From an uncultured Candidatus Saccharibacteria bacterium (GTDB lineage Bacteria; Patescibacteriota; Minisyncoccia; Minisyncoccales; GWA2-38-27), in contig CAZDXV010000002.1 in assembly GCA_964509645.1 (NCBI GenBank), positions 1,934 through 65,933 on the forward strand: a stretch of 64,000 nt of DNA, in the 5' to 3' direction. A program made the position numbers and the translations under genes. The notes under the pieces are model-generated. The model did not search any database. It was not told the origin of the DNA and saw nothing but the letters and a program-made list of their open reading frames with translations. Of the stretch, positions 2,722-49,689 are shown one piece after another; the stretch's first letter is position 1; every line of letters begins with the position of its first letter.

Positions 2722-3562
2722 GTTTTTCTGCTGCTCGGAGCTTGCAGCTCCTTGCGCGAGGATTACTCTTTACTTCCTTTAAACTTGCTGTTATAGGTTT
2801 TTTTGTAATAATTTTAAGACCTTTTTGATTTTTAAAGAATTGTTTTGCAATTCTGTCTTCTAGGGAATGAAAGGACAGGATAACCAATCTTCCCTTAGGA
2901 GACAAAATTTCAAAAAGACGGGGCAGAGCCTTTTTTAAATGATCAAGCTCTTTGTTTGTTTCTATTCTTAGGGCCTGAAAAGTTCTAGTGGCGAAATGAA
3001 TTTTCTGAGGTTTTAAAGGAACAGCTTTTTTTATTATCTCCACTAGCTGAAAAGTGGTTTCTATCGTTTTCTTTTTTCTTTCTTCTAAGATTCTTTTAGT
3101 AATTCTTCCGGCAAACTTTTCTTCTCCGTAATCTTTTAAAGTTCTGTGAATATCTTCCTTGGGGTATTCATTAACTATAATTTTAGCTGTTAAGAAATTA
3201 TTTACCGGATCAAACCTCATATCAAGAGGCTCATCCTTCTGAAAGGAGAATCCCCTACCCGACTTCTCCAAATGCCAGCTTGAAAGTCCAAGATCTAAAA
3301 GTATGCCGTCTATTCTATCAAACTCTTCAATCTCAGAATAACTTTTGTTAAAGAGAGCAACTCTATCTAGTTTTTGATTTTTTAACTTTTGAAAAAGAAC
3401 AGGATCTCGCTCTATAGCTACAACTTTTCCCTCTGGCCCGTTGCGGTCCAAAATCATCCTGGTATGTCCCCCTTCTCCTGCCGTAGCGTCAATAAAATTC
3501 TTGTTTCTCCTGACTTCTAAATATTCCAAAACTTCTTTTTTAAGAACAGGCTCGTGAATCAT
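2714..3562 (-). CDS. rsmH: 16S rRNA (cytosine1402-N4)-methyltransferase RsmH/MraW
   Basis: HEPVLKKEVLEYL start, SAM motif DATAGEGGHT, and LDLGLSS and SFHSLEDR motifs. Follows mraZ. Confidence 0.95.
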   Translation of the reverse strand: MIHEPVLKKEVLEYLEVRRNKNFIDATAGEGGHTRMILDRNGPEGKVVAIERDPVLFQKLKNQKLDRVALFNKSYSEIEEFDRIDGILLDLGLSSWHLEKSGRGFSFQKDEPLDMRFDPVNNFLTAKIIVNEYPKEDIHRTLKDYGEEKFAGRITKRILEERKKKTIETTFQLVEIIKKAVPLKPQKIHFATRTFQALRIETNKELDHLKKALPRLFEILSPKGRLVILSFHSLEDRIAKQFFKNQKGLKIITKKPITASLKEVKSNPRARSCKLRAAEKHD

Positions 3563-3994
3563 CTATATTCCCAGCTCTTCAAGATTAGAGACCATATCGT
3601 CAACCTTGGGCTCAATCTTGCTTTTAAAGCTGTTCCATTTCTTTTCATCCCAGATCTCCAGTCTGTTAGAGAGACCGCAAACAACAGTGTTCTTTTTCAG
3701 AGTTGCATAATCTTTAAGGTAATCGGGTATCAGTACTCTTCCTAATCTGTCTATACCGGCTAGCACTGCGCCCGCCAGCATTATCCTGGCAAAGTTCCTT
3801 GCTTCTTTTCTGCTTATAGGAAGCTTCTCTAGTTTTTTAGACATTACATTCCATTCTTTTTCAGGATAAACAACAAGGCATTTATCTACCCCCTTTGTAA
3901 TCACCACTTTCTTTCCCAGCTTCTTTCTAAACTTGGCCGGCAGAGCCAGTCTTTTCTTGCTGTCTATTGTGTGTTTGTATTCTCCTATAAACAT
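3563..3994 (-). CDS. mraZ: Transcriptional regulator MraZ
   Basis: MFIGEYKHTIDSKKRLALPAKFRK matches the MraZ N-terminus, and a second DxxxR-type half is present. The track ORF starts at TTG 4039; I prefer ATG 3994 at MFIGEY. Confidence 0.9.
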   Translation of the reverse strand: MFIGEYKHTIDSKKRLALPAKFRKKLGKKVVITKGVDKCLVVYPEKEWNVMSKKLEKLPISRKEARNFARIMLAGAVLAGIDRLGRVLIPDYLKDYATLKKNTVVCGLSNRLEIWDEKKWNSFKSKIEPKVDDMVSNLEELGI

Positions 3995-4056
3995 AAGGTT
4001 ATCCACTAATCTAAGGGGTTTTCCCATAGTTTTCCACAATCTACCACCTTACTTCC

Positions 4057-14453: not shown

Positions 14454-15064
14454 TTTTCAATAAGAGGAACGAAGGTAAATCCTTCATGCTCTTCTTTTTT
14501 AAGCTTTCCACCTTTCTTTTCTAAAACCCAGATAGAATGCCTTACGGGAGTTACAATTATTCCGCCCTCTTTAAGCTGTTTTTTCCAGGCTAAGGGTATT
14601 TTATCTTGAACTGCAGCAGAAGCTAAAATTTTATCAAAAGGAGCTTCACTTTTATACCCTTTTGTTCCATCAGCTAAAGCAAACTGAGCTGTTCCTTTTT
14701 TAATAAAGTTGTATTTAGAAACATTTTTTTCCCCAAACTCCCTTAGCTCGGGAATAACTTCTAAAGCTACAACTTTTCCCTTATCTCCCACTAAATAGGA
14801 TAAAAGAGCTGTAGTCCAACCAGATCCGGAACCAATATCTAAAACAATATCTCCTTCCGAAACTTGAAGTTTTTCTATCATAAAAGCCACAACTAGGGGC
14901 TGAGATATTGTTTGATCAAATCCTATAGAAAAAGCCTCATTGACTTCAGCTAAATTCCTTATTTCTTCTGGCATAAAATCTGCCCTGTCAATACTCCTAA
15001 AGGCATCAATAACCTTATCTGTTTTAAGCCACCCTTCTTTGATTAAATCATCAACTAAACTCAT
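14450..15064 (-). CDS. pcm: Protein-L-isoaspartate O-methyltransferase
   Basis: QTISQP motif and SAM motif VLDIGSGSGWTTALL. Confidence 0.85.
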   Translation of the reverse strand: MSLVDDLIKEGWLKTDKVIDAFRSIDRADFMPEEIRNLAEVNEAFSIGFDQTISQPLVVAFMIEKLQVSEGDIVLDIGSGSGWTTALLSYLVGDKGKVVALEVIPELREFGEKNVSKYNFIKKGTAQFALADGTKGYKSEAPFDKILASAAVQDKIPLAWKKQLKEGGIIVTPVRHSIWVLEKKGGKLKKEEHEGFTFVPLIEK

Positions 15065-15558
15065 AGAAGAGGATGCCTTAATTTAAAAAATATCTTTCTT
15101 AAAAGAGGTAAGCGGTTAAAAAACAAAACACCGTCCAAATGATCTATTTCATGCTGAAAAACTCTTGCAGCTAAACCCTCTGCTTTAATTCTTACTTTCT
15201 CTTCTTTTTTATTCAGAGCTTCAACTTCTATTTTTTGAGCCCTGTTTATTTTCAAAAAAATACCGGGGAAACTTAGACATCCTTCTTCTCCTAATTCTTT
15301 TTCCTTGCTTTTATTGATAATCTTAGGATTTGCCAATACCAAAACCCCTCCTTCTTTAGGATCCGCTACAGCCATTATTCTTTTTGAGATCCCGACCTGA
15401 GGAGCAGCTAGTCCGATACCGTCTTTTTTAACCATAGTTTCTGCCAAGCTGTCAGCAAATTTTTGGTCTATTCCATTTACTTTCTCTGCTTTTTTTCTTA
15501 AAACAGGATCTCTAAATTTTCTTATCTCTAATAAAGACATATACTTATGATATGACAT
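15061..15558 (-). CDS. def: Peptide deformylase
   Basis: Motifs GIGLAAPQ, EGCLSFPG and HEIDHLDG. Confidence 0.95.
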   Translation of the reverse strand: MSYHKYMSLLEIRKFRDPVLRKKAEKVNGIDQKFADSLAETMVKKDGIGLAAPQVGISKRIMAVADPKEGGVLVLANPKIINKSKEKELGEEGCLSFPGIFLKINRAQKIEVEALNKKEEKVRIKAEGLAARVFQHEIDHLDGVLFFNRLPLLRKIFFKLRHPLL

Positions 15559-15572
15559 TTTAAACTTTTTTT

Positions 15573-15795
15573 CAAAAAAAAGGGGTCTTGAAGACCCCTT
15601 GAAGGCTTAGTGGAGAGAGAAGAAAAAAAGTGGAGACCATACTCCTGAAAGGCGTAGACAACCACTGCGGCCTAGGTACTGCGCTGAGGGGACAGTTTCT
15701 TGCAAGCCGCAACGAAGGCCCCGGGGCAGAAACACCTGGCAGACCTTACAACCTTTCCTTTTGCTCTTCTCTCTCCTTTACTCTCTTAAAGAACT
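15573..15795 (-). ncRNA. Unclassified structured small RNA (rod-like, 6S-like architecture; class unresolved), including its terminator hairpin 15573-15600
   Basis: GC-rich patch in AT-rich DNA. A 12-bp closing helix (15612-15623 with 15765-15776), further nested helices, its own promoter, and a terminator GGGGTCT/AGACCCC followed by a run of T on the minus strand. Confidence 0.5.
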
Positions 15796-15801
15796 ATTTT
15801 C

Positions 15802-15830
15802 TTTTTAACAAAGGAGAAAACATTTGTCAA
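15802..15830 (-). promoter_or_regulatory. Candidate promoter TTGACA-17-TAAAAA for the small RNA
   Basis: Minus strand reads TTGACAaatgttttctcctttgtTAAAAA. Confidence 0.45.
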
Positions 15831-15849
15831 TAGGAGGCTTTTCATAGTG

Positions 15850-15921
15850 CGGGGGTACTAGGACTCGAACCTAGAAAACCAGTTTTGGAAACTGGTAGTT
15901 TTCCAATTAGCTTATACCCCC
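15850..15921 (-). tRNA. tRNA-Trp (anticodon CCA)
   Basis: Hand fold: GGGGGTA acceptor, D-loop AATTGGAA, anticodon loop TTCCAAA, T-arm CTAGG-TTCGAGT-CCTAG, discriminator G. Confidence 0.9.
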
Positions 15922-16098
15922 GATCTTATTACCTATCTTTTCAAAAACTCCTTCGGAACCCTCTCCTTTCATCGGAAAAGCTTTGTCTTGCTCCTGCTTA
16001 AAATAACGCAATAAGTAAATCTCTTTCCGTCTTTTGCGTAATGATTCGCGCATATCGCGTCCTTTCTCCCCAAATCTTCTTCTCAAGTTCTTTAGAAC

Positions 16099-48792: not shown

Positions 48793-49689
48793 TTAAAGTG
48801 TGATTAAAAGATTTTCAACAGCAAATTTTAAGCTTACATTTGTAGTATATATTAAAAACTGGGTTGTTTGAAGTTTCTTAATAAAGTTTTTAATTTTTAA
48901 AGGAGAATAACCTTTAAAGCCGGATTTTGAAATTAAGATTTCTCTTAAATACTCGGACCAAACAGATAAAATTTCCATTGTTTTTTCTGAAGATCCTGAA
49001 ATTTCTTTAGCATATTTAAACCTTTCAGAAAAACTGGAATCTTTAAGCTTAAGCAAGTCTAAAATTATATCTTTTCTTTCTTTTAGCTTTTCAGGATAAT
49101 CAATAAAATCTATGACCCTTCCTGGTTTTCCCAGGGAAATTGAGGACAGCTCTTCTGCTTTTTCTTTAGAAATTCCTTTCTTCAAAAGGTATTCCTTTAT
49201 TATCTTTTTTTCAACCGGTGAAAACCTCAGAGTTTGAAGGCGGGAGGTGATAGTAGAAAGAAGGGTCTCAGGATATTCTGTTATCATTATCAGGAGAGTA
49301 TCCCCTTTAGGCTCCTCTAAAAGCTTTAAAAAGCAGCTCTGAGCCGGCAAAGTCATATTGTGGGCCATATCTATTATTCCCACCTTTAAGGGAGCAGAAT
49401 AGGGCTTTAAAGATAAACGAGAGATGAGATCTCTTATCTGGGAAATTTGAATGCTTCCCTTGTTTTCTATTAAGGCTAGATCGGGATGCTTTCTTTTCTC
49501 TACTTCTTTGCAGCTTCTGCACTGGCCACAGGCTTTTTGATTTTCGCAGTAAAGATATTTTATAAAATCTAAAGCTAAAGTTTTCTTTCCTATCTTCTCC
49601 TGACCTGAAAAAAGAACAGCGTGGGGAAGCTTTCCTAGCTCCGAAATTTTTCTTAAAAGAGCTCTCTGTTTTTGATGTCCCAAAACCAT
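48793..49689 (-). CDS. holB: DNA polymerase III delta-prime subunit
   Basis: KLPHAVLFSGQEKIGKKTLA, Zn module CGQCRSC, and FLKLLEEP. Confidence 0.8.
   Translation of the reverse strand: MVLGHQKQRALLRKISELGKLPHAVLFSGQEKIGKKTLALDFIKYLYCENQKACGQCRSCKEVEKRKHPDLALIENKGSIQISQIRDLISRLSLKPYSAPLKVGIIDMAHNMTLPAQSCFLKLLEEPKGDTLLIMITEYPETLLSTITSRLQTLRFSPVEKKIIKEYLLKKGISKEKAEELSSISLGKPGRVIDFIDYPEKLKERKDIILDLLKLKDSSFSERFKYAKEISGSSEKTMEILSVWSEYLREILISKSGFKGYSPLKIKNFIKKLQTTQFLIYTTNVSLKFAVENLLITL

Follow-up and report, generated by a model that had tools for sequence, protein, structure and literature searches.

A probable stand-alone structured RNA gene beside tRNA-Trp in a small clade of Patescibacteria

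We analyzed a 64,000-nucleotide (nt) stretch of contig CAZDXV010000002.1 from an uncultured Candidatus Saccharibacteria bacterium (hereafter, the window), focusing on an element on the minus strand that is flanked by the tRNA-Trp gene and the peptide deformylase gene def. The whole window is AT-rich (about 30–40% GC; genome, ~33% GC). GC content reached 0.51–0.61 in 100-nt windows at 15600–15749, compared with 0.27–0.40 in the flanks, and this island lies at the level of the adjacent tRNA genes. A preliminary description, made from the letters of this stretch, had already pointed to a GC-rich segment between tRNA-Trp and def, which the GC profile bears out, and had read it as an independent minus-strand small RNA gene of unresolved class. 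We found that the element is probably a stand-alone gene for a structured noncoding RNA (ncRNA) of about 220 nt, founding an undescribed family that is confined to a small clade of Patescibacteria (candidate phyla radiation, CPR). As judged from sequence, the family would be new, its general kind (a structured small RNA, sRNA, specific to one lineage) is familiar, and its mechanism is inferred.

Two syntenic loci from relatives, L081 and L082 (def 73% and 71% identical, respectively), carry a clear homolog right after tRNA-Trp, and the comparisons below rest on these three copies unless stated otherwise. The promoter that had been read at 15802–15830 (TTGACA-17-TAAAAA) is exact and is also kept in both diverged relatives, where an identical TTGACA occupies the equivalent place (3725–3730 in L081 and 3260–3265 in L082). 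Both hexamers and the 17-nt spacing are invariant in the three genomes, the spacer sequence is 48–56% identical, and the promoter begins at most ~20 nt from the tRNA-Trp 3′ end in each of them. One-mismatch matches to such a pattern are expected about twice per window, so a single site alone would not be beyond chance. The promoter appears to be of the sigma-70 type, with a predicted transcription start near 15795. At the other end, the terminator proposed at 15573–15600 proved to consist of a 9-bp stem followed by T8, and counterparts of unrelated sequence were found in L081 (about 3975–4000) and L082 (about 3503–3533), with T-runs 3′ of the hairpins on the minus strand only. The element thus has the general features of an sRNA gene, namely its own promoter and terminator among orthologs and pairing kept by compensatory substitutions, which supports the earlier reading of an independent minus-strand gene.

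No hairpin or terminator was found between tRNA-Trp and the −35 hexamer of the sRNA in the window, and outgroup loci carry a terminator hairpin right after tRNA-Trp, exactly where the window has none. The sRNA terminator therefore probably also ends read-through of the upstream tRNA/rpmG/tRNA-Trp transcript. The downstream gene def is preceded by a promoter of its own in all three genomes (TTGAAA-16/17-TAT(C/T)AT, then 6–7 nt to the ATG), spanning about 3996–4040 in L081 and about 3965–4003 in L082. Database protein P0001 begins at the ATG at 15538–15540, which is probably the true def start, with the mechanically called start at 15558 being wrong. Since the −10 hexamer ends 6–7 nt before this ATG in all three genomes, the arrangement suggests that the def mRNA is leaderless.

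The minus strand of the element folds strongly in the window (−83 kcal/mol, z = −3.6) as well as in L081 (z = −5.9) and L082 (z = −4.9), with 0 of 200 shuffles as good in each case. Folding of both orientations, which had been suggested earlier, thus confirmed a strong minus-strand fold, but the plus strand folds about equally well, so that energy alone does not decide the strand. A consensus structure was obtained from RNAalifold and from individual folds of the three homologs, which were in agreement (Table 1). The predicted architecture is branched: a stalk of P1 and P2, a side hairpin P5 and a four-way junction from which P3, P4a and P4b extend, together forming a folded core of 165 nt (15612–15776, minus strand). 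P1 is 19–20 bp long over the homologs (19 bp in the window), with compensatory changes in 3 pairs and one-sided G-C/G-U/A-U changes in 4. The conserved junction UUCAG runs from the last bases of P2 over a single A into P5, a hairpin of 4–6 bp across homologs in which 3 of 5 pairs are compensated (GGAG/CUCC, GGGA/UCCC and GAGG/CCUC) and 100% of cells are paired. In P3, both-sided changes affect 4 of the 8 stem pairs, and the loop holds the motif (A/C)UGCCA..GG..UUU..CCCG in alignments of the three genomes. P4a carries a conserved UCCC(C)UC(A)GC (15683–15692) in or near its apical loop, above a base helix that reads GGCU/AG(G)CC in the window, GACU/AGUC in L081 and GACU/GGUC in L082 (separate P4 folds). 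P4b is a 4–5-bp hairpin at the same position in all three genomes (stems CGCG/CGCG in L081 and GGCUU/AAGCU in L082), with GUAA in the loop region of both relatives. P4b and the base of P4a still pair despite complete turnover of their sequences.

Table 1. Features of the sRNA locus and its neighbors (positions are those of the window)
Feature	Position	Strand	Remarks
tRNA-Trp (CCA)	15849–15921	−	Upstream same-strand neighbor; linked to the sRNA in 3/3 genomes (Rfam, ARAGORN)
−35 hexamer TTGACA	15825–15830	−	Exact match; starts 18 nt past the tRNA-Trp 3′ end
−10 hexamer TAAAAA	15802–15807	−	17 nt after −35; hexamer identical in all three genomes
5′ leader before P1	15777–15795	−	48% identity, window vs. 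L081/L082; 78%, L081 vs. L082
P1, 5′ strand GGAGAGAGAAGAGCAAAAG	15758–15776	−	Nearly all purine; 19 pairs, 98% of cells paired
P2, 5′ strand GAAAGGU	15751–15757	−	Helix of 8 pairs, 2 compensated, 96% of cells paired
P3 hairpin	15715–15747	−	7–8-bp stem, 19–20-nt loop; pair probabilities 0.5–0.95 in the window
P4a, variable irregular hairpin	15666–15711	−	46 nt in the window, about 51–70 nt in relatives
P4b hairpin GUGG-UUGU-CUAC	15654–15665	−	Directly before the P2 3′ strand
P2, 3′ strand GCCUUUC	15647–15653	−	Consensus fold; P2 of 7–8 bp
P5 hairpin GGAG-UAUGGU-CUCC	15632–15645	−	Branches from the 3′ strand between P2 and P1
P1, 3′ strand CUUUUUUUCUUCUCUCUCC	15612–15630	−	Pyrimidines throughout; pairs with 15758–15776
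Intrinsic terminator AAGGGGUCU-UCA-AGACCCCUU + U8	15573–15600	−	9-bp stem from 15600 to 15580, then T8
def promoter and start	15540–15575	−	TTGAAA 15570–15575, TATCAT 15547–15552, ATG 15538–15540; separates def from the sRNA unit
def open reading frame (mechanical call)	15061–15558	−	Real start probably 15540

Parts of the fold drawn by hand in the preliminary description recur in this consensus: its 12-bp closing helix (15612–15623 with 15765–15776) is real and is a portion of the 19-bp P1, and P2 and P5 correspond to its GAAAGG/CCTTTC helix and its GGAG...CTCC hairpin, respectively. Its inner pairs, CTGC..CAGGT/ACCTGGCAG and GTTTCT/AGAAAC, can be formed in the window and lack comparative support. 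A duplex between the P3 loop and P4 was no better than in dinucleotide shuffles (z −0.5 to −0.9 in the three genomes) and competes with the covarying P3 stem with its 4 compensated pairs; we therefore rejected the inner long-range helices, including P3-loop/P4 pairing as a rod or as a pseudoknot. Consequently, the rod-like, 6S-resembling shape was replaced by a branched molecule with no large central bubble. A kissing contact between the P5 and P3 loops was also considered and dropped, being absent in L082.

Covariation was tallied on the well-aligned helices (42 pairs in the sequences of the window, L081 and L082), where standard pairs made up 96% of cells. The comparative analysis that had been proposed for related genomes yielded both-sided changes in 12 pairs, compared with 0–1 when partners were slid by 1–3 columns, and the observed covariation values were reached by 0 of 500 shuffles. 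Thirteen cells are G·U, and reading the opposite strand lowers the paired cells from 120/125 on the minus strand to 108/125, owing to A·C mismatches. These G·U cells favor the minus strand, in agreement with the orientation of the promoter and terminator.

The class of the RNA was examined against known families. Rfam 15 at the gathering score, applied to the whole window, gave tRNAs only and no family at the element, and at E ≤ 10 the element in the three genomes gave sub-threshold matches only (down to about 7–15 bits), none of them common to all. Neither RF00013 nor the other 6S families of Rfam 15 matched in the window, L081 or L082, and a rod of two irregular stems around a central bubble is not seen, the stretch that would be its 5′ bubble strand being folded into P3. 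ARAGORN called 7 tRNAs and no transfer-messenger RNA (tmRNA) in the window, and no tmRNA in L081–L083; a tRNA-like domain with a tag frame is likewise missing from the element, as is an Rfam match to tmRNA. For signal recognition particle (SRP) RNA, there was no Bacteria_small_SRP or Bacteria_large_SRP match, and by inspection of the three sequences the domain IV motif lies on no apical hairpin. For RNase P RNA, we found no RNaseP_bact_a/b match, no P4 with conserved regions CR-I to CR-V and no ACAGAA-type partner; the purine stretch AGGAAG has a vague likeness to conserved region I (CR-I) and was rejected in that role, being the covarying 5′ strand of P1/P2. Riboswitch families had no Rfam match in the three copies. 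The earlier failure to recognize SRP domain IV, RNase P regions or a tmRNA end is thus confirmed by Rfam 15 and ARAGORN, and its assignment to no settled class holds for all three homologs, with no match to 6S, SRP or any other family. No open reading frame (ORF) is shared by the window, L081 and L082; those present differ in strand, frame and length, and an AUG in the P3 loop of the relatives is CUG in the window. A protein-coding element was rejected on this ground, and the plus-strand ORF at 15630–15833, already taken for an artefact, has no conserved counterpart in the relatives. The literature on ncRNAs of CPR/Patescibacteria yielded nothing relevant.

We investigated the distribution of the element through its neighboring genes. 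A def protein search returned four proteins of >65% identity; two of the loci, L083 and L112, duplicate the copies of the window and L081. By trmD identity, about five database members form a tight clade (≥83%), beyond which the values fall to 75%, with remoter matches labeled Patescibacteria, Pacebacteria or Nealsonbacteria at source. Searches with def, trmD and L33 proteins gave only two further distinct copies, L081 and L082. Further copies were sought with an nhmmer profile and with covariance model R1, both derived from the three copies, in the window, in ~1.3 Mb of fetched loci (including 80 def loci) and in the viral and metagenome pattern matches, and none was found; the best extra match (49241–49386 of the window) falls within an ORF of 298 amino acids (aa). 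Pattern scans produced 2 chance matches in metagenomes (one within an ORF) and chance matches only in viral contigs, and blastn against phage and plasmid collections produced no match. A def scan of GTDB species genomes yielded distant relatives only; the closest locus was L001 (def 57% identical; order tRNA-Tyr, tRNA-Thr, tRNA-Trp, def), which lacks the element, its tRNA-Trp and def being separated by no more than a GC hairpin of about 65 nt. In the outgroups (L084–086, L091–095, L113 and L001), tRNA-Trp is followed by def or a small zinc-ribbon gene within 86–122 nt, and no outgroup locus spanning the site has the element (at least 5 lineages with tRNA-Trp beside def). As far as the data reach, the element is single-copy, orthologous and limited to a small clade.

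Two outgroup spacers deserve separate mention. The 65-nt GC-rich 3′ flank of tRNA-Trp in L001 (3910–3975) can form several mutually exclusive hairpins (GCCCGCC.../GGCGGGC...), exceeds a plain terminator and has no homology to the sRNA element. An 87-nt spacer between def and PCMT in L084 (3501–3587), the same in L085 and L086, matched the model weakly (9 bits, E about 3); conserved in three contigs as it is, the match is probably due to chance.

Among the three copies, the helices are 67–77% identical and P4, which can barely be aligned, only 26–46%, with third codon positions of def/trmD at 56–68%. These values indicate that the RNA evolves fast yet appears to keep its fold. Since the outgroups lack it as well, it looks like an RNA that one lineage gained not long ago, and not like a housekeeping RNA of universal occurrence. 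It may have arisen as an insertion of ~250 bp in the ancestor of the clade.

Several observations weigh against an established, functional sRNA gene. Three distinct sequences make for weak covariation statistics, and the shuffle control can be beaten through the kinship of the sequences alone. The −10 hexamer TAAAAA misses the final T, which is usually critical, and the start and ends of the RNA are themselves deduced from the letters. Fast evolution and outgroup absence would equally fit a dispensable, recently acquired element. Finally, partner and target, as modeled below, are deduced from the anatomy of the molecule.

In the mechanism that we propose for the stand-alone sRNA, it would act in trans as a stable folded molecule, both of its ends locked in a duplex of ~27 bp. 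This stalk should stabilize the RNA, or could alternatively be a substrate of RNase III. The contact surface would be made of conserved unpaired motifs, i.e., UGCCA and CCCG of the P3 loop, UCCCUC of P4a, and the UUCAG/CAC junctions. The likeliest partner is a protein, with the RNA serving as the scaffold or decoy of a ribonucleoprotein (RNP), a model to which we give somewhat less than even weight; pairing with G-rich RNA targets is the next likeliest mode and an unlikely one. A protein-binding role is favored since pairing with ribosome-binding sites is improbable where G-rich Shine–Dalgarno (SD) motifs are rare: GGAG occurs within 22 nt upstream of 3 of the 62 long ORFs in the window and GAGGG upstream of none. 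Mimicry of the anti-Shine–Dalgarno sequence was rejected for the same rarity. A more specific picture, which we regard as tentative and rather doubtful in full, is that the RNA founds a class of structured regulatory or RNP RNAs of an ultra-small Patescibacteria lineage, captured or born as a 250-bp insertion beside tRNA-Trp, and would now be a stable protein binder, e.g., a functional stand-in for a global regulator such as 6S RNA, in organisms largely devoid of SD control and of known sRNA chaperones.

Side by side with these initiation counts, we recorded that among the same 62 ORFs (≥120 aa) GGAGG was found upstream of no start codon and that A/T-rich words such as TAAAA and AAAAT dominate there, as would be expected if leaderless or SD-independent initiation is widespread in this organism.

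The likeness to 6S RNA (ssrS, RF00013) concerns size, gene organization and mode of conservation. Conservation of structure above sequence is typical of 6S RNA, and 6S covariance models miss distant phyla. A divergent 6S-type RNA that binds the holoenzyme as an open-promoter mimic, with P1 and P2 as the closing stem, P4a as the terminal stem and P3 and P4b as folded bubble strands, would accommodate the ~220-nt size (~200 nt in 6S RNA), the stand-alone gene of abundant type with strong promoter and intrinsic terminator, the long helix that closes the molecule by pairing its 5′ end with its 3′ end, and a structure far more conserved than the sequence. We nevertheless judge it highly unlikely: besides the missing covariance-model matches, a four-way junction takes the place of the large central bubble, the 5′ “bubble strand” being held in an 8-bp stem that covaries; the stalk, a near-perfect A-form helix of 19 + 7 bp, has none of the periodic bulges of 6S closing stems and bears the additional hairpin P5; and the distribution is very narrow, with the element missing at the same site in outgroups and no homolog elsewhere in the loci searched. 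A role as a cis-regulatory leader of def, a riboswitch or attenuator working through the terminator, has a chance close to nil. That terminator does lie ~30–40 nt upstream of def on the same strand in the window and L081, but the conserved def promoter intervenes between it and the ATG, a complete XRE-type helix-turn-helix (HTH) gene with its own promoter and terminator sits between the RNA and def in L082, and the terminator stems are separate units, each of the three genomes having a sequence of its own there, and lie clear of P1; these facts together rule out a def leader or riboswitch. The only candidate anti-terminator, pairing of the P4 loop with the 5′ half of the terminator, amounts to 3 bp in L081 by inspection and was discarded, and no riboswitch family matched.

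A trans-acting riboregulator, whose C-rich loops (CCCG in P3 and UCCCUC in P4a) would pair with G-rich mRNA sites in the way of the UCCC motifs of staphylococcal Rsa/RoxS-type sRNAs, is unlikely for reasons that lie partly in the host and partly in the molecule. Both C-rich motifs are kept in predicted loops of all three genomes, and unpaired UCCC-type motifs in hairpin loops are shared with Firmicutes RsaE/RoxS and other Rsa RNAs; the UCCC-loop mechanism is documented for S. aureus Rsa RNAs (PMC2790875). The host, however, rarely uses G-rich ribosome-binding sites, as the scarcity of SD-like sites given above illustrates, and def is apparently leaderless. The element is 2–3 times larger than RsaE/RoxS, ends in a 27-bp stalk and is much more ornate than usual seed-pairing sRNAs, and a G-run of P4a in L081 and L082 can sequester one of the C-rich motifs. 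It is also very improbable that the element is a selfish or structural DNA insertion, domesticated or in decay and without a trans function, resembling a miniature inverted-repeat transposable element (MITE) or an overgrown terminator or insulator of the tRNA-Trp operon, whose RNA would be a by-product that stops read-through into def. Inverted termini of 19 bp, a core of 165–190 bp and the position beside a tRNA gene recall Correia and Rickettsia palindromic elements; the element appears as an insertion in one small clade relative to outgroups with just tRNA-Trp, a simple GC hairpin and def; the locus is a hot spot of insertion, L081 having additional DNA and L082 an HTH gene; and the P4 region evolves fast. 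Unlike MITEs and palindromic elements, however, it is present once in the 64-kb window and nowhere else in ~1.3 Mb of fetched loci, occupies an orthologous position in three diverged genomes, and shows compensatory and G·U changes in P1, P2, P3 and P5, termini included, which indicate that selection acts on pairing in the RNA and not on ends for transposase binding. Its conserved dedicated promoter would be needless for a mere terminator, and no target-site duplication was seen in the window. These points speak against a selfish element at present; its origin may have been MITE-like.

Two further systems resemble the stand-alone structured RNA that we prefer. The bacterial Y-RNA-like YrlA/Yrn1, considered here by general description and by Rfam, likewise joins a terminal stalk built from both ends to a four-way cloverleaf-like domain. 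The element differs in lacking T-loop and D-loop signatures, in arms far above the size of tRNA arms and in having no Rfam match, and no rsr (Ro60) gene was found near it in the loci seen. The raiA motif RNA and other orphan ncRNAs from GC-rich intergenic regions (PMC6429828, PMC8632094 and PMC11109978) share the setting of a GC-rich region in an AT-rich genome, and raiA RNA also the size of ~200 nt, a multi-helix junction and a biochemical role that is unassigned in both. Unlike raiA, which occurs in thousands of genomes, the element is seen in three, and it matches neither raiA nor another Rfam 15 family.

The neighborhood contains further features of interest. A gene for a KhpA-like KH protein lies about 1.5 kb upstream of the element. 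A small ORF lies between rpmG and tRNA-Trp in the window (15907–16086, minus strand; 59 aa) and in L082 (2984–3184; 66 aa); the two C-termini are identical at 19 of 28 positions and end in ...NKIGGIS, with the stop codon within the tRNA-Trp gene, and the ORF may encode an unannotated small protein that overlaps the tRNA gene. Relative to the window and L082, L081 has ~640 bp of extra DNA between rpmG and tRNA-Trp (2990–3630), including a reverse-strand tRNA-Ser(tga) call (3030–3104), fragments of an exonuclease-like ORF and a duplicated 3′ end of rpmG (about 3530–3590), which has the appearance of a scar of insertion at this locus. The XRE-type HTH gene in L082 (3533–3960; 114 aa) has its own TTGACA promoter, and a different HTH gene lies between yceG and a DJ-1 gene in L081 (6221–6592); the window has neither, and small HTH regulators appear mobile within the syntenic block.

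To our knowledge, ncRNAs of CPR/Patescibacteria are almost uncharacterized beyond rRNA, tRNA and the universal housekeeping RNAs. Genomes this tiny would hardly retain a dedicated promoter, a covarying fold of 165 nt and a terminator that served no purpose. Were the element merely an elaborate terminator or a decaying insertion, it would be ordinary. If the RNA is expressed and specifically bound, it would open a first way into the RNA-based regulation of these episymbionts, and it would exemplify cleanly the recent origin of a structured RNA gene, which one small clade has and all neighboring lineages lack at this site.

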